From sequence record OK272484.1: 64,000 nt of DNA. One strand, written 5' to 3'. Under the pieces are notes generated by a model. That model was given only the letters and a program-made list of their open reading frames with translations, was not told the DNA's origin and made no database searches. Both the position numbers and the translations under genes were made by a program. Shown piece after piece: positions 16,353 to 61,455 of the stretch (position 1 is its first letter; every line of letters begins with the position of its first letter). This DNA comes from Escherichia phage JLBYU22.

Positions 16353-16356
16353 CAAT

Positions 16357-16374
16357 GGGGACCGAAAGGTCCCC
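16357..16374. terminator. Bidirectional hairpin terminator between gene 54 and the convergent minus-strand block
   Basis: GGGGACC-GAAA-GGTCCCC perfect 7-bp stem, flanked by A/T tracts. Confidence 0.7.
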
Positions 16375-16380
16375 ATATTT

Positions 16381-16671
16381 TTATTTACGGAATGAAATAA
16401 AAGCAGCAACTGAAGCAACTAAACTGTCTTCAATATAAACTTCAATTTTTACCGGAGCTTCTGACTCAAATTTACCTGTTACTACACCTTGGAAAATGCT
16501 TTCAGTCTGTTCTGGCTTTGAAAAATTTTCAGAAGGAAAAATTCCGAACTTTTTATCTGTTCCAAAAATTTTGATAAATTCATCGTAAACTGCTTCATTA
16601 AAAGCATTATCAGCAGGAATAACGCCTTCAACTACAAGTTCTTGACCTAAAAAGCGCAAAGAAGATTTCAT
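16381..16671 (-). CDS. Hypothetical protein downstream of alt
   Basis: 96-aa ORF with GAGGA Shine-Dalgarno and its own early promoter. Confidence 0.6.
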   Translation of the reverse strand: MKSSLRFLGQELVVEGVIPADNAFNEAVYDEFIKIFGTDKKFGIFPSENFSKPEQTESIFQGVVTGKFESEAPVKIEVYIEDSLVASVAAFISFRK

Positions 16672-16681
16672 TTTGTGTTCC

Positions 16682-16740
16682 TCATGTTATGTCAGTAAGA
16701 TTACTATAACACAACACGAGGGACTTGTAAACTACATTTT
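16682..16740 (-). promoter_or_regulatory. Early sigma70-type promoter cassette (GTTTAC -35, 17-nt spacer, TATAGT -10) plus leader
   Basis: Minus strand GTTTACaagtccctcgtgttgtgtTATAGT; 51-bp near-identical copy at 31839..31889. Confidence 0.55.
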
Positions 16741-18789
16741 GAACTTTTTAGACATTCCGTTAATGTTAACCAAAGAAGCTAAGATTTGAGAAACTTCGTT
16801 TTCCTCTTCTTTTGATTCTTCGACAAGGAATTGATTAAATCCAGTCATTGGACGAACTTCACCAGTTTCCATCAAATGGTCGCCATCATATACTGATTCC
16901 TCTAATTGTTCAGAAGGAGGAACGATTGTACCTTCGATTAGATACTTGTTATAAGCAGTTTCTTTCATAAAGTACGTACTTACTTTATTAATCTTCAGTA
17001 AAATTCCACGTGGTAGAATAACTTCAGCTTCTGATGGAAATCCTGATAAATGACCTGGAACGATAACTTTGATTCGCTCAGCTCCTTTAATTACCATACC
17101 CACGCTAGTTTCGGCATCTTCACTAGCATATGTAGAATGACTACCCATATGCATCAAATCTTCTGCATCAACGGAACCTTCTCCTTCACCAGAAAATACT
17201 GCGCCGGAATCATCTAAGGCCATATAGTTTTTACCATGCTCACCGAAGATATTTGGTTTAAGCGATGTGGATACGAAGTTCTTGAAATAGAACATTTTGT
17301 TTTCAATGTTATGACGCAAAGTTTTAAATGTAACTTCTTGTCCACGGTAAAGTGTAGTTCCTGGAGGAAGAACTGAACCTTTAGCGAATGCAGAATCAAG
17401 CGTCTCAATATGTTTAATAGCTCGTTCCATATATTCTTCGCGGGTAGAATCTGGTTTACCCAAAAGGAACGAGTTCATTTCAACATATGAATCTGCACAA
17501 TAATCTTCAATTACATCAGATTCAGCTTGAGTTAATCCTTTTGGAGTTACTTCGGTGCTCGCGTATTCATATGCCTGAGCGGCAGATTCATTAATCAATT
17601 TATAAATGCCATTCATGACAAATTGAATAATAGCTGTCTTTTCATCTGGTGTAGCTTTAGAACCTTTAACTAAATCATTGATAATTTTCTTAATAACATC
17701 AAAGCTATTAGAAATATTAATGTCAGCAAGATCGCTTAAAATTTTATCAGTTTTATAATCAAAGAATTCTTTATTCTTTAAATATTCTTGAGAACCTTGA
17801 TATGTTATATCGCTCTGCAACTTGATAGATGGATCACGTAAACGCGCATGGGCTAATGCAATATGATTTCGGAAACTTTCTAGTTCATAATCATTAGATT
17901 TAAAACGAGAAGCACTTCTCATACCACCGATAGCTCCTTTGTTAAAGTTTGAACCAATCTGGATAACCCCGGAGTTCATTGGTCCTTCTGCTTTATATAC
18001 CGGAACTTTAGATTCAAACTCTTGATATTTCTTAGCAGCGAAGCTATCACCCTGAAGTGAAGCATCAACAGTAGAATATTGAGCTTGTGCTGCTAATCGA
18101 CGACTAATTTTAGTTTTCTGAATAACAGCTTGATCCGTGCGCTTATCATTTTCTAAGGCAATAGAAGCAGCAACAGCAACAGCTTTAGGAACAGCATTAC
18201 CTGTTTTAACGTCTACATAAACATCACCAACCTTTGATTCAACTTTTGTGAATAACTCAGTTGAAATAGGAGGTACACCTGGAATGTCTTCTAAATTGGC
18301 ATTTTTACGGTAAACCATAATATATGCATACTTTTTATCGTAATCCCAGATTTCCTTTAAAAGAGCATATCGACCTGCTCCTTTAGTACGTACTAAACGG
18401 TCAGCAATAACTTGCATTTGACGAGCTGCGCCATTTGTTTTACTCTTTAGTACGCGGAATAAGCATGCATCAATTTTATACTGTTTCATTGTTTGAAGAG
18501 CAGTATCAAAAACCGCATTAATGACACCAATTGGATTTCCACCCAAGTTTTTAAGTTTAACGAGCGATAGTTTCTCATTGACACCTATCATTACGATATG
18601 CATCATTTTATCGCCTGGCTTAACGTTTTTATTTGTATCACCGCCAGAGGTGTATGTACAAAATCTAAATCCAGGAAGCACACTTTCTTCGCCGGCTTGA
18701 ATAGCAAAAATTTGCGGTATTTTATGCTTAGGATTTAAGTTAACAACCGGCGCCGAAGCGCCGTCAAATAATTCTGTAATAAGTTCCAT
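16732..18789 (-). CDS. alt: Alt-like mono-ADP-ribosyltransferase, paralogue A (685 aa)
   Basis: N-terminus MELITELFD; ART R-S-E motifs YRGQ / FVSTSL / SEAEVILPRG. Confidence 0.85.
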   Translation of the reverse strand: MELITELFDGASAPVVNLNPKHKIPQIFAIQAGEESVLPGFRFCTYTSGGDTNKNVKPGDKMMHIVMIGVNEKLSLVKLKNLGGNPIGVINAVFDTALQTMKQYKIDACLFRVLKSKTNGAARQMQVIADRLVRTKGAGRYALLKEIWDYDKKYAYIMVYRKNANLEDIPGVPPISTELFTKVESKVGDVYVDVKTGNAVPKAVAVAASIALENDKRTDQAVIQKTKISRRLAAQAQYSTVDASLQGDSFAAKKYQEFESKVPVYKAEGPMNSGVIQIGSNFNKGAIGGMRSASRFKSNDYELESFRNHIALAHARLRDPSIKLQSDITYQGSQEYLKNKEFFDYKTDKILSDLADINISNSFDVIKKIINDLVKGSKATPDEKTAIIQFVMNGIYKLINESAAQAYEYASTEVTPKGLTQAESDVIEDYCADSYVEMNSFLLGKPDSTREEYMERAIKHIETLDSAFAKGSVLPPGTTLYRGQEVTFKTLRHNIENKMFYFKNFVSTSLKPNIFGEHGKNYMALDDSGAVFSGEGEGSVDAEDLMHMGSHSTYASEDAETSVGMVIKGAERIKVIVPGHLSGFPSEAEVILPRGILLKINKVSTYFMKETAYNKYLIEGTIVPPSEQLEESVYDGDHLMETGEVRPMTGFNQFLVEESKEEENEVSQILASLVNINGMSKKFKM

Positions 18790-18792
18790 GAT

Positions 18793-20889
18793 TTATCCTT
18801 GAACGAACTTGTAAGGCATGTTTGTAATATCTATGCAAGACGCAATAATTCCAAGAGATGATTCTACTTTTTGTTTAACATTTGATGAAACAAATGATGC
18901 AAAGTCAACTCTGTCTTCTATTTCAATATCACCTGTCATTGCAACTACTTCGCCGGTTTCCATTAAATGGTCTCCATCATAGATTACCGATTCGGTGAGC
19001 TCTTCCGTGGTCATAACTTCAGCTTGAATGAGTTTTGTATTATTAGACGTGGTTCCGTCATTATTAGAAGCATCAGTTATTTTATTAACTTTGACCATCA
19101 ATCCGCGCGGTAGAATAACTTCAGCTTCTGTTGCTATTCCGAGACTTCCTGGATATACAACATTAACTTTATGAGCTCCATCAATTGCCCATCCTATTTG
19201 AACTTTAACGTATTCAGGATTTTCTTTATACGCTCTTATTTCGTTTGGATTAATAGTTATTCCTTCTTCATTTTTATCAACTGTCAATTCATTACGAGCT
19301 TCTGGTTCTAAAAGACCAATACCAGCATGTGTAATTCCAAAACGTCCAAAAATGATAGGAGTTAAAGAAGTAGATACAAAATTTCTGAAATAGAACACTT
19401 TATTTTTAACTAGTGCTTCGTATATAGGAGCAGTCATACTTTGAGCACGATAAACTGTGATGCCTTCCGGTATGCGGTCACCATTTTCAAAAGCTGAATC
19501 TAAGTTATTTATAGCAGATTCAATTTCTTTTTCACTCATTACATCATATCGTTCTGGATTGTAACGACCTAAAAGAAGATTATTGATGTCAGTATATCCT
19601 GAACCGCAATATTCTCTAATGCCACGCTTTTGTGATGGAGTATATTTAGAACCATCGCGGGCAATAGTAATATCAATCATTGGACCAGCACCAATTCCAG
19701 AAAAACTGTAAATCATTCGTTTGAGGAATTTAGTTTTTGCTGCGTTCCAGGAATTTTTAGTTATTTCTTCCCAGACTTCATCTGGTTGTCCTTTACGATT
19801 TTTATTATGATTAGCAAGCCATTTATCTTTATAATCTTCAAAGAATTGATTTACAGCTGCTGCGTATTTCTCTAAACATTTTATTGAAGTAGTTGGTTCA
19901 TTTTTAATCGCATTAAGAATTACATCTTTAATTTTTTCAGAAACTTCATTAACCTCACTTTTTGAAAAGAATTTATAGTCATAATGAAGTTCATCTGCAG
20001 TTCCTTCGGCAATGATTTTTGCTGCTTTAGTTTTAGAAGCTAATGAATTAATTCCAAGCTTCATTTCTTCTGCTTCGGGAATTAAAGGAGCCGTAGCAGG
20101 TTTATTGAAATTAGCTGCGGTAGATTCATACTTTTGGAATAATTCACTTTCAAATCTAGAAGATTCTAATGATTGACTTTGTGCAATTGCTCTACGGGAA
20201 ATTTTAACTTTAACGATTACAGCTTGGTCAGAACGTTTATCGTTTTCTTGCGCAATAGATGCAGCAATTGCCTCATTTTTAGTTACTTGAGCTCCAGTAT
20301 CTTTATTGATATAAACATCACCGACCTTTGATTCAACTTTAGTAAAGAGCTCGGTACTAATTTCCGGAACTCCTGGAATGTCTTCTAGTGATACATTTTT
20401 GCGATGTATAAGAATATATGCATACTTTTTATCGTAATCCCAGAGTTCCTTAAGAAGGACGTATCTACCACCTGAACGACTACGGATAAGTCTATCAGCA
20501 ATAACTTGAATTTGTCGAGCTTGACCAGCGGTTTTAGACTTAAGAATACGGAGCATACAGGCATCAATTTTATACTGACGCATAGTTTGCATTGCAACAG
20601 TAAAAACTGAATTGATATAATTAATTGGGCTTGGACCAAGACCTTTTAATTTAGCAATTGAACCTTTAGCAGTTAATGTAAAAGGAACAATATGCATCAT
20701 TTTATCGCCCATCTTTAAATCGCGATTAGTATCACCTCCAGATGTATAGGTGCATAAACGAAAGCCTGGCTGTTCAATTGCATCATCAACGTGAACTGAA
20801 AAAATTTGCGGTATTTTCTTCTTTGGATTTAAGTTTGTAATCGGAAGAGTAGTATCTTCGTCAAATAATTCTGTAATAAGTTCCATCAT
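18793..20889 (-). CDS. alt: Alt-like mono-ADP-ribosyltransferase, paralogue B (698 aa)
   Basis: N-terminal 250 aa closely similar to paralogue A; motifs YRAQ / FVSTSL / TEAEVILPRG; late promoter upstream. Confidence 0.85.
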   Translation of the reverse strand: MMELITELFDEDTTLPITNLNPKKKIPQIFSVHVDDAIEQPGFRLCTYTSGGDTNRDLKMGDKMMHIVPFTLTAKGSIAKLKGLGPSPINYINSVFTVAMQTMRQYKIDACMLRILKSKTAGQARQIQVIADRLIRSRSGGRYVLLKELWDYDKKYAYILIHRKNVSLEDIPGVPEISTELFTKVESKVGDVYINKDTGAQVTKNEAIAASIAQENDKRSDQAVIVKVKISRRAIAQSQSLESSRFESELFQKYESTAANFNKPATAPLIPEAEEMKLGINSLASKTKAAKIIAEGTADELHYDYKFFSKSEVNEVSEKIKDVILNAIKNEPTTSIKCLEKYAAAVNQFFEDYKDKWLANHNKNRKGQPDEVWEEITKNSWNAAKTKFLKRMIYSFSGIGAGPMIDITIARDGSKYTPSQKRGIREYCGSGYTDINNLLLGRYNPERYDVMSEKEIESAINNLDSAFENGDRIPEGITVYRAQSMTAPIYEALVKNKVFYFRNFVSTSLTPIIFGRFGITHAGIGLLEPEARNELTVDKNEEGITINPNEIRAYKENPEYVKVQIGWAIDGAHKVNVVYPGSLGIATEAEVILPRGLMVKVNKITDASNNDGTTSNNTKLIQAEVMTTEELTESVIYDGDHLMETGEVVAMTGDIEIEDRVDFASFVSSNVKQKVESSLGIIASCIDITNMPYKFVQG

Positions 20890-20909: not shown

Positions 20910-20917
20910 TATTTATA
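20910..20917 (-). promoter_or_regulatory. T4 late promoter (TATAAATA on minus strand) upstream of Alt paralogue B
   Basis: Exact reverse complement of TATAAATA, 21 nt upstream of start at 20889. Confidence 0.6.
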
Positions 20918-25299: not shown

Positions 25300-25632
25300 T
25301 TATTTTACTACTTTCCAGTGCTGCATGTCAAGTTTACCAACTTTTTTCATCTTCTCAATTAAGCGTTCTGCGCGTTGGCGAGCTGTAACATAATGCCATT
25401 CACCTAATTCATTTTGTTCAATTTTTCCAACGATTACTGTGTTCAATTCATAAATCCAACCAGTAAAGAAATTATGAACTTGAATTGTAAAGGTGAAATC
25501 TGTTCCCATACCTTCTGTTGTTTCTACTTCAATAATATCACCTTCAACTGCCATTAAGAACCACATAGTTTCATCATATTTACCGTTGAAGCATTTAGTT
25601 TTAACTGTAGCGTTCAGATTAATCGTTTTCAT
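25300..25632 (-). CDS. Hypothetical protein
   Basis: 110-aa ORF. Confidence 0.55.
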   Translation of the reverse strand: MKTINLNATVKTKCFNGKYDETMWFLMAVEGDIIEVETTEGMGTDFTFTIQVHNFFTGWIYELNTVIVGKIEQNELGEWHYVTARQRAERLIEKMKKVGKLDMQHWKVVK

Positions 25633-25719
25633 TTTATTCTCCTTTGTTTGTGTAAGATAATACTATCACAAAGGAACCATACTGTAAACAACTTTGTGCA
25701 ATCTTTGGAAAATAAAAAA

Positions 25720-28523: not shown

Positions 28524-28585
28524 TTTGTTTTCCTCATTTGTTTTGGTAGAGCTATAATATCACAACTCTACCAAAAAGTAAACTA

Positions 28586-30984: not shown

Positions 30985-31334
30985 TTAGAAAGGTCCTGGA
31001 TGTCTTCTGCGAACTTGTTGAAGGAGTTGTTGATTTGTTTTTCAACCAATCCTGGCTTATGAGCCACCACATCCGCCTTCTTTGCGTCTTTGCGCAGCTT
31101 TTCATTTTCACGCTCAATAACAGCAATTGCCTCACGATTTTTATTATTCATCGCATCAATATAATTATACTGAATTCGCAAATTATTTAATGCTAAGGCG
31201 TTTTCATTGGCCGTTTTTGTAATTTCTACAACAGACGTTTCTAATCTTTCAATTTTATTTTTTAAAATTAAAGAAGTTCCGCCCAATGCAATTACAATTA
31301 ATAGCAAACCTGCTGTCGTATTACTTAATTGCAT
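30981..31334 (-). CDS. Putative i-spanin (Rz-like)
   Basis: 117 aa; N-terminal TM helix TTAGLLLIVIALGG then charged coiled-coil-like region. Confidence 0.6.
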   Translation of the reverse strand: MQLSNTTAGLLLIVIALGGTSLILKNKIERLETSVVEITKTANENALALNNLRIQYNYIDAMNNKNREAIAVIERENEKLRKDAKKADVVAHKPGLVEKQINNSFNKFAEDIQDLSK

Positions 31335-31831
31335 AAAGTTTTAATAACCTCTATAATATCGTCTTGAGAAAGACCGTTAATTAAAATATGATGTTCAGCT
31401 GGAGATTTAGAAATTTTAAAGCATGCCTCAACATCTTCTGCCATATCCGATGCACTACGATTTGGATTACTAATACCAAGGCGGTGTTTTCCCGTCAAAG
31501 GATTAACGATGATATAGCATTTGCAGCTATTGATATGAACATTGGGTTGAGTCTGATTAATGAACACTTCACAATCATACTTAGCGAGTTGATTTTCTAA
31601 AAAGACTTTCATCTCTTCAACCGCATCAGGAAGCATATCACGGGCTTGCTCAAGACGACGATTTCGATATTCTTTAATGGTCGTTTTCCGCTTGACTTGC
31701 TTAGCTAAATCTTTCTTAAGATCGGTGATATATCCAACTCGACGATTTCCTTTGAATACAGAAATCCCATCTGTAGTATCACCGTATGCTTCAACGACCA
31801 TTTCAGTAGTAATAAGTTGTAAATCCATCAT
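31325..31831 (-). CDS. alc: Alc, inhibitor of host transcription
   Basis: 167/168 aa (tandem ATG), T4 Alc length; position upstream of pseT block. Confidence 0.8.
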   Translation of the reverse strand: MMDLQLITTEMVVEAYGDTTDGISVFKGNRRVGYITDLKKDLAKQVKRKTTIKEYRNRRLEQARDMLPDAVEEMKVFLENQLAKYDCEVFINQTQPNVHINSCKCYIIVNPLTGKHRLGISNPNRSASDMAEDVEACFKISKSPAEHHILINGLSQDDIIEVIKTLCN

Positions 31832-31838
31832 AAAGTCC

Positions 31839-33480
<1,642 letters not shown>

Positions 33481-61276: not shown

Positions 61277-61390
61277 TCACATAAATCCAAAGTAAGCGTT
61301 TAATACATCAATCATTAAAACGATTGGGAATATACTCAAAACTATTAGTATTATAACTACATTCCATATAGCTTTAACAATCTTTTTCAT
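61277..61390 (-). CDS. Small membrane peptide (37 aa)
   Basis: MKKIVKAIWNVVIILIVLSIFPIVLMIDVL...; GGAGG Shine-Dalgarno; early promoter directly upstream. Confidence 0.5.
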   Translation of the reverse strand: MKKIVKAIWNVVIILIVLSIFPIVLMIDVLNAYFGFM

Positions 61391-61410
61391 TTTCTGTTCC
61401 TCCGTAGTTG

Positions 61411-61455
61411 ATAGGGTAATAATACCACAGAGGAACAGTCTTGTAAACAACTTTT
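61411..61455 (-). promoter_or_regulatory. Early promoter cassette (family 2)
   Basis: GTTTAC -35, 18-nt spacer, TATTAT -10, leader ...CTATCAACTACGG. Confidence 0.5.

Follow-up and report, generated by a model that had tools for sequence, protein, structure and literature searches.

The 64,000-nucleotide stretch of the genome of Escherichia phage JLBYU22 that was analyzed here (sequence record OK272484.1, referred to as the window) contains on its minus strand two nearly identical segments, one directly upstream of alt.-3 and the other directly upstream of alc. In each of them, the motifs of a T4-type early promoter lie within a predicted RNA hairpin whose 3' arm includes the Shine-Dalgarno sequence of the following gene. 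Judged from sequence comparisons, we consider it slightly better than an even bet that these cassettes are early promoters built into a Shine-Dalgarno-sequestering hairpin, that this arrangement is ancient at alc, and that it was copied onto alt.-3 in Tequatrovirus. According to this model, alc and alt.-3 are probably translated only from RNA that has been started at their own promoters.

A sequence-only reading of the window had described a 51-bp segment that recurs about 15 kb away with 2 mismatches. A search of the window finds this 51-mer at 16682-16732 (0 mismatches) and at 31839-31889 (2 mismatches), and there is no third match in the window at up to 3 mismatches, with 0 matches expected from shuffles. 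The duplication is thus confirmed, and the repeat is really 54 bp long, as three more bases are identical at the low-coordinate side. The two copies are direct repeats, 15.2 kb apart:

16679 to 16732, minus strand: cassette copy 1, 54 bp, from GTTTAC to GAGGA, 5' of alt.-3; 52/54 identical to copy 2
31836 to 31889, minus strand: cassette copy 2, 54 bp, 5' of alc; 52/54 identical to copy 1

Read on the minus strand, the identity begins with the G of GTTTAC and ends with the A of GAGGA. When the two loci are aligned with their flanks, the flanks turn out to be unrelated and do not align, and the similarity is not confined to a generic promoter consensus. The earlier suggestion that the identity exceeds what promoter function needs is well founded, as other pairs of early-promoter cassettes in the window (54 pairs from 11 predicted cassettes) are identical at 26/54 positions on average and at 40/54 at most. 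The region around the repeat matches Escherichia phage TH09 at 100% identity and several hundred Tequatrovirus (T4-like) genomes at 95-99%. T4 is among the 499 phage records that contain the 54-mer, at 997 places in total and two per genome. For the population analysis, GenBank phage records were used in place of IMG/VR, where scans for Alc relatives and for the cassette gave 6-7 close T4-like contigs, too few for this purpose.

The promoter itself had been read on the minus strand as a GTTTAC -35, a 17-nt spacer, a -10, a leader and a GAGG Shine-Dalgarno sequence, and this is borne out by a consensus scan, which returned TTTACA-17-TATAGT in copy 1 and TTTACA-17-TACAGT in copy 2, both with TG present:

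16726 to 16731, minus strand: -35 TTTACA of copy 1 (consensus scan), with GTTTAC at 16727-16732
16703 to 16708, minus strand: -10 TATAGT of copy 1, after TGn; 10/12
31883 to 31888, minus strand: -35 TTTACA of copy 2 (consensus scan), with GTTTAC at 31884-31889
31860 to 31865, minus strand: -10 TACAGT of copy 2, after TGn; 9/12

Both copies therefore have the features of early sigma-70 promoters, i.e. the -35, the 17-nt spacer, a TAnnnT -10 and a TGn extended -10, and in both the layout is GTTTAC, 14 nt, GTGT and then TATAGT (copy 1) or TACAGT (copy 2). The G of GTTTAC in copy 1 (16732) doubles as the last base of the TAG stop codon of the upstream Alt-like open reading frame (ORF), and in copy 2 a TAA stop lies 3 nt before GTTTAC. 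The 25 nt upstream of the -35, where an A/T-rich UP element would lie, are coding sequence and A-rich in part (...CTAAAAAGTTCAAAATGTA in copy 1, ...AAAAAATTTATCCCAGAAGGATACTAAGCT in copy 2). There is no TATAAATA late-promoter motif in or near either cassette; the motif that is present is of the sigma-70 early type. A RegB site is not obvious, as the Tequatrovirus cassette reads GAGGA and not GGAG. The cassettes resemble the T4 early promoters, Pe (Hinton 2010, PMC2988021), in the GTTTAC -35, the TGn and a -10 that has A at -11 and T at -7, and they likewise immediately precede genes that T4 expresses early. The same site has been annotated as T4 early promoter by another lab in the record of phage ASO78A, which quotes the Pe consensus as GTTTAC-N14-gtggTAtaaT. 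What distinguishes the cassettes from a generic Pe is that their spacer is an anti-Shine-Dalgarno stretch and their initial transcribed region its complement.

In the sense (minus) strand, the whole shared segment folds as one hairpin of about 20 bp. Folding of the shared leader, which had been proposed as a check, thus gave a long hairpin, with energies of -23 kcal/mol in copy 1 and -28.6 kcal/mol in copy 2 (z -4.5 and -4.9). The idea of a shared regulatory RNA element was right in spirit, but the element itself had been missed, as it is a single hairpin with the promoter in its 5' arm and the Shine-Dalgarno sequence in its 3' arm:

16702 to 16721, minus strand: predicted 5' arm of copy 1, CCUCGUGUUGUGUU, a 2-nt bulge and AGUA, corresponding to promoter spacer and -10
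16698 to 16701, minus strand: predicted loop of copy 1, AUCU
16680 to 16697, minus strand: predicted 3' arm of copy 1, UACUGACAUAACAUGAGG, with GAGG at 16680-16683 and the predicted start at about 16696
31859 to 31883, minus strand: predicted 5' arm of copy 2, AAGUCC, one unpaired C, UCGUGUUGUGU and then CAGUA
31833 to 31854, minus strand: predicted 3' arm of copy 2, with GAGG at 31837-31840 and the predicted start at about 31853

The Shine-Dalgarno GAGG is paired to CCUC in the stem, and the -10 sits at the top of the 5' arm. The transcription start, which we infer from the usual distance of 7 nt from the -10, falls in each copy on the second base of the 3' arm. A weaker fold is obtained for the opposite strand (-17.2 and -17.9 kcal/mol), because three of the stem pairs are G-U. 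In RNA that begins 150 nt upstream of the -35, the predicted probability that the Shine-Dalgarno sequence is unpaired is 0.001 in both copies, and it rises to 0.13 (copy 1) and 0.60 (copy 2) when the RNA begins at the predicted +1; the predicted cost of opening the region from the Shine-Dalgarno sequence to the AUG is 13.7 and 13.9 kcal/mol in the readthrough RNA versus 2.2 and 3.5 kcal/mol in the RNA from +1. No Rfam family reached its gathering score anywhere in the window, and copy 1 gave only a chance-level microRNA match (E = 0.14, 20 bits versus a threshold of 140).

How could such a cassette work? Each copy would be an immediate-early sigma-70 promoter of the T4 type inside a hairpin of about 20 bp, with the promoter spacer and the -10 as 5' arm and the first ~18 transcribed bases, including the GAGG of the next gene, as 3' arm. 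RNA that reads through from upstream, i.e. from rnlA (RNA ligase 1) into alc or from the alt paralogues into alt.-3, would have both arms, and with the Shine-Dalgarno sequence paired to CCUC its translation would be blocked. RNA started at the embedded promoter would begin within the 3' arm, could not form the stem, and would be translated. Translation of the downstream gene would in this way be tied to the firing of its own early promoter, and the cassette would be a translational insulator that works without a transcription terminator.

This logic is known from the T4 genes e, soc, 49 and I-TevI. In their long early transcripts, the ribosome site is occupied by base pairing, and translatable RNA comes from a promoter located in the helix's 5' strand (PMC3014915). 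The likeness lies in the pairing of the Shine-Dalgarno sequence and/or AUG in readthrough RNA, and in the coupling of translation to one promoter without termination of the upstream transcription. Also in the cassettes, the Shine-Dalgarno sequence is predicted to be paired in a stable helix of the upstream-initiated RNA, and the 5' strand of this helix harbors the promoter, whose transcripts, if begun at the predicted start, lack that strand. The difference is that the internal promoter of e, soc, 49 and I-TevI is a late one (TATAAATA, gp55), which serves to silence a late gene early, whereas the cassettes have a sigma-70 early promoter, and the predicted timing is therefore reversed, with the downstream gene being translated during the immediate-early period alone and kept silent on RNA that reads through later. 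Neither alc nor alt.-3 is among the genes listed in PMC3014915, and for both of them translational inhibition is a prediction. An early-promoter cassette that acts as a Shine-Dalgarno-hiding hairpin would thus be new in using an early instead of a late promoter for a known logic. If this holds, the synthesis of Alc and Alt.-3 would be confined to the first minutes by a single 54-bp element, and a textbook T4 mechanism would be extended from late to early promoters. Alc stops host transcription in T4, and the timing of its synthesis matters. The one element would be promoter, translational operator and insulator, while long transcripts for downstream genes would be uninterrupted, and being compact, it could be transferred as a part into synthetic circuits of phages or bacteria.

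In a T4 time course, alc and alt.-3 have early RNA and early protein, whereas rnlA has early RNA and late protein, and pseT.3 early RNA and middle protein (PMC9697503 supplement). This fits with promoters directly upstream of alc and alt.-3 and with an uncoupling of RNA and protein along the operon, although it does not prove the mechanism; if the mechanism is true, it would account for the mismatch of RNA and protein timing along these operons. Readthrough RNA into the cassettes is plausible, because the scan found no terminator-like site between the upstream genes and either copy. A TATAAATA late-promoter motif is found just upstream of the first alt gene (20910-20917, minus strand), and late transcripts from there would cross both alt genes and enter the alt.-3 cassette.

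The main rival to translational control, of low but appreciable probability in our view, is that the hairpin mainly serves the message upstream of it. As a terminator or attenuator that lacks a U-tract, as an obstacle to 3' exonucleases or as a processing site of the RNase III type, it could end or stabilize the rnlA and alt mRNAs, and the promoter would overlap with it to save space. The length of the stem, about 20 bp, is sufficient for a double-strand-specific nuclease. Three other early promoters of the window (-35 at 28583, 25297 and 40287) lie in hairpins that do not touch the Shine-Dalgarno sequence, so that a promoter can have a hairpin without a hidden ribosome site, and a terminator-prediction program flagged the hairpin in phage ASO78A. 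However, the lack of a T-run after either stem and the empty terminator scan at the cassettes speak against a terminator, and the 3' arm always spans the Shine-Dalgarno sequence in 9-10 alc lineages despite changing stem length and sequence, for which a pure 3'-end structure has no need.

These lineages provide the evidence that the arrangement is ancient at alc. The alc locus was taken from 12 other Straboviridae lineages. In most of them, the gap between rnlA and alc is 55-70 nt long and contains GTTTACA, directly followed by a stretch that is complementary to the Shine-Dalgarno region of the same locus. Among the 11 lineages that entered the duplex test, the 18 nt after GTTTAC are complementary to their own Shine-Dalgarno region in 9-10, with sequences that differ between the genera:

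Gelderlandvirus alc: 5' arm UCUCCGUUUAGUU, 3' arm AACUAAACGGAGA
Jiaodavirus alc: 5' arm UCCUCAUCAG, 3' arm CUGAUGAGGA
Bragavirus alc: 5' arm AACCUCUCAUUUU, 3' arm AAAAUGAGAGGUU
Winklervirus alc: 5' arm UCCUCAUUUCGUU, 3' arm AACGAAAUGAGGA
Moonvirus and Karamvirus alc: UCUCCAUUUGG paired with CAAAUGGAGA
Dhakavirus and Roskildevirus alc: UCUCCUCA paired with GAGGAGA

In case of Gualtarvirus, the stem is shifted and its 5' arm consists of the -10 and the next 6 nt, an arm that would also be absent from promoter-started RNA. As the 3' arms were out of register in a MAFFT alignment of 12 lineages, the alignment was replaced by an alignment-free test of cognate versus non-cognate duplex energies. The mean energy of the cognate spacer-leader duplexes is -17.4 kcal/mol, versus -10.35 +/- 1.17 kcal/mol with permuted leaders, and none of 20000 permutations reached the observed value. 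The pairing at alc is thus conserved by compensatory changes. RNA from the predicted +1 is unstructured in all 11 lineages (0 to -2 kcal/mol). A special situation is found in Gaprivervirus VR25 (locus L012, positions 290-603), where an extra 77-aa ORF lies exactly between rnlA and alc; a GGGG...CCCC terminator, a promoter-like site and a hairpin that covers the Shine-Dalgarno sequence all belong to this ORF itself, and alc lacks a promoter of its own there.

An inverted repeat could in principle also act in the DNA, as a cruciform or as a site for a dimeric protein that modulates promoter activity, and the perfect Watson-Crick palindromes of most genera, of which both strands fold equally well, would be compatible with that. 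We nevertheless regard a function of this kind as very improbable: it is the complementarity alone and not the sequence that is conserved between genera, which argues against a protein site, the three G-U pairs of Tequatrovirus are mismatches in the DNA and on the other strand, and it is always the Shine-Dalgarno sequence that is covered by the 3' arm. Strand asymmetry as a general proof of an RNA-level role had to be rejected, as it holds only in Tequatrovirus and Karamvirus.

If the hairpin is ancient at alc, where does the copy at alt.-3 come from? An alt gene followed by alt.-3 with an early promoter is also present in six other genera, in some of them with the same overlap of TAG and GTTTAC, but a pairing of spacer and Shine-Dalgarno sequence at alt.-3 is found in none of the six. 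On both sides of its alt.-3 cassette, Tequatrovirus has sequence that is orthologous to the loci of these genera, from the end of the alt ORF through GTTTACA on one side and from AUGAGGA onward on the other. The simplest reading of this comparison is that the approximately 40 nt between GTTTACA and AUGAGGA have been replaced by the alc version in the stem lineage of Tequatrovirus. As the hairpin is present in the alc lineages but absent at alt.-3 in the six genera, the alt.-3 copy probably derives from the alc cassette, being a Tequatrovirus-specific short-patch copy of it, and the promoter-cassette transfer that the sequence-only reading had considered gains support. The patch was probably bounded by motifs that are common to such promoters, GTTTACA on one side and AUGAGGA on the other. 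Short-patch copying from alc to alt.-3 would explain the near-identity of the copies, and thereafter nearly every base would be constrained twice, by the promoter and by the stem. Both the direction and the mechanism of the copying are inferred, and the direction is not certain. In the Mosigvirus RB69, the cassettes upstream of alc (L038) and alt.-3 (L031) are also alike, in a different form with a short palindrome within the spacer and the shared leader AUCAACAACAYGAGGA, and there is no pairing of spacer and Shine-Dalgarno sequence.

Within Tequatrovirus, the consensus of both copies across genomes is the same 54-mer (54/54), GTTTACAAGTCCCTCGTGTTGTGTTATAGTAGTCTTACTGACATAACATGAGGA, and one metagenomic contig has two copies that are 54/54 identical. 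The two differences between the copies of the window are strain-private. One is a loop G-to-A exchange in copy 1, and the other a T-to-C exchange within the copy 2 -10, by which a U-G pair becomes C-G. Further private variants are G16-to-A (a G-U pair becomes A-U), G40-to-A in the alt.-3 copy of T4 (a U-G pair becomes U-A) and T33-to-A, a loop change. All five private variants thus keep the structure, being either loop changes or exchanges of G-U for Watson-Crick pairs. Concerted evolution within Tequatrovirus cannot be shown, since both copies have one and the same consensus and differ only by strain-private singletons.

It may be asked whether the repeat is simply a duplicated strong promoter, whose identity results from recent copying together with promoter constraints, and whose hairpin has no function. 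The T4 early-promoter consensus is indeed extended, from an UP element to about +10 (PMC2988021), and the aligned early promoters of the window have the motifs GTTTAC, TGTGRTAYTAT and AUCAAC in common. Yet the identity of 52/54 is far from the 40/54 or less of the other pairs, the fold has the z-scores given above, a cognate-specific complementarity at alc is kept across genera, and the polymorphisms keep the structure. A promoter without a functional hairpin is therefore rather improbable.

The two copies had also been regarded as a substrate for homologous recombination and deletion. Both chimeric junctions that are expected from a crossover were built and searched against the phage collection, and no recombinant junction of the deletion or the duplication type was found in the 499 Tequatrovirus records; only the parental halves match, and no match covers 80% or more of either junction. 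As a working substrate for deletion, the copies thus find no support. By T4 gene order, the interval between the copies includes genes 30 and 31, which we take to be essential in T4; if so, a deletion between the copies would be lethal. In terms of genome evolution, a regulatory cassette would have been copied between loci 15 kb apart and then held identical, and no rearrangement is seen in about 500 genomes.

This bears on a further alternative, in which the repeat is a mobile cassette at the DNA level that provides homology for modular shuffling, and the RNA fold is incidental. Such a role has precedent in the PeSLs (early promoter with stem-loop; Arbiol et al. 2010, PMC2839356; Comeau et al. 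2014, PMC4122927), which likewise combine an early promoter, a stem-loop and a Shine-Dalgarno sequence and are repeated within a genome, and whose spread has been proposed to occur via cassette exchange between loci (PMC2839356, PMC4122927). The PeSLs of T4 and PST share TTTACW-N17-TAYWAT and a Shine-Dalgarno sequence at the 3' end (PMC4122927), and in the cassettes the early promoter is also followed by Shine-Dalgarno sequence and start codon. That two near-identical promoter/Shine-Dalgarno cassettes reside in one genome, and that the extra ORF of Gaprivervirus VR25 lies exactly between rnlA and alc, would agree with a PeSL-type element. However, the defining stem-loop of PeSLs is a terminator just upstream of the promoter (PMC2839356, PMC4122927), whereas here the stem encloses the promoter and the stop codons abut or overlap the -35. 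There is also no association with indels, replacements or recombinants in the 499 records, the ORF insertion in VR25 being one possibly related case. PeSLs cluster in hyperplastic regions beside variable ORFs, whereas the alc and alt.-3 loci are syntenic across genera, with a conserved gene order around both copies. The break of homology between T4 and the window about 19 bp upstream of copy 1 was considered as a cassette-mediated module boundary, but this was rejected: in T4, the second alt paralogue has an internal deletion that left the remnants alt.-1 and alt.-2 and kept the last ~19 nt of the ORF, and the break is hence not a cassette exchange. As the compensatory changes moreover point to selection on the pairing, we give little credence to shuffling as the function of the repeat.

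Several points weigh against a Shine-Dalgarno-sequestering early promoter that was copied from alc to alt.-3. All support is computational, and the transcription start is placed by spacing and not mapped; in the literature, we found neither 5'-end data for either site nor a genome-wide map of T4 start sites. Pairing of spacer and Shine-Dalgarno sequence at alc is absent in Mosigvirus and in the more distant Ac42, phiAS4 and LPCS28, so that the design is dispensable. In genera other than Tequatrovirus and Karamvirus, every stem pair is Watson-Crick and both strands fold equally well, and strand asymmetry thus does not exclude a DNA-level role there. The 3' part of the cassette (AACAUGAGGAAC) resembles the alt.-3 leaders of other genera as well, which is the reason for the uncertainty about the direction of copying. 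In the laboratory, T4 does not need alc (bioRxiv 10.1101/2025.11.20.689424), and a selective pressure for its tight control is therefore not obvious. As to novelty, a full-text search of the literature, with the main T4 genome review and older promoter papers outside its scope, found such a hairpin described neither for alc nor for alt.-3, and the older T4 literature may therefore contain a prior description.

Is the design limited to alc and alt.-3? Of the 11 early promoters that are predicted immediately in front of ORFs in the window, the one with its -35 at 61448 clearly has this design as well. At this site (61387-61448, minus strand), a 15-bp stem of CUGUUCCUCUGUGGU and ACUACGGAGGAACAG with -23.2 kcal/mol, whose arms are at 61438-61424 and 61408-61394, sequesters the Shine-Dalgarno sequence of a 37-aa membrane-like ORF, and its sequence is unrelated to the alc cassette. 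A weaker case is seen at 25632-25689 (minus strand), with a 9-bp stem of UUCCUUUGU with ACAAAGGAG (arms at 25676-25668 and 25647-25639). The promoter at 25689 precedes a 110-aa ORF of unknown function (25300-25632, phrog_1507); that gene 31 is located behind this promoter was considered and rejected, as the ORF is the 110-aa phrog_1507 protein. With the G of their -35 at 28583, 25297 and 40287 (minus strand), three promoters have hairpins of -15 to -21 kcal/mol that enclose the -10 and end short of the Shine-Dalgarno sequence, and these may be overlapping promoter and 3'-end structures, a class apart from the alc type. Apart from alc, alt.-3, 61448 and 25689, the early promoters of the window thus have either hairpins around the -10 that end short of the Shine-Dalgarno sequence or no hairpin. 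The design is thus used by a subset of the early promoters and not by all. We only tentatively suggest that this subset forms an unrecognized class of promoter-gated translational insulators in Tevenvirinae, in which the spacer is used as anti-Shine-Dalgarno sequence, and which would be ancient at alc, where compensatory changes kept it in at least 9 genera, portable, as at alt.-3, and present also at 61448 and 25689. If such a class is real, its genes would be silent on the abundant middle and late readthrough RNA, which would make it the temporal mirror of the e, soc, 49 and I-TevI hairpins.

The gene context of the two cassettes was set by matching to the T4 record AF158101 and by Pfam scans, and the neighbors that had been named before, a 96-aa ORF and alc, are correct:

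16381 to 16671, minus strand: alt.-3, 96 aa, PF17602/DUF5498, downstream of copy 1 (T4 match, Pfam)
16732 to 18789, minus strand: Alt-like ADP-ribosyltransferase paralogue, 685 aa, PF03496, upstream of copy 1 (Pfam)
31325 to 31831, minus strand: alc, PF17527, downstream of copy 2 (T4 match, Pfam)
31893 to 33017, minus strand: rnlA (RNA ligase 1), upstream of copy 2 (T4 match)

The start of rnlA at 33017 is taken from the T4 gene length, and the listed ORF extends to 33053 from a GTG. alc begins with two adjacent in-frame ATG codons (31826-31831, minus strand), which gives a spacing of 5 or 8 nt from GAGG; the ORF list uses the first ATG (168 aa), and the T4 record annotates the second, at 31828 (167 aa). 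The Alt-like ORF upstream of copy 1 is one of two tandem full-length alt paralogues on the minus strand, at ~18793-20886 (697 aa) and 16732-18789 (685 aa). On the other side of alt.-3, a bidirectional intrinsic terminator is found at 16355-16376, between the convergent genes alt.-3 and 54. It has a 9-bp stem with 6 G-C pairs and the required T-run on the plus strand only, the tail on the minus strand being TGTTATATTG.

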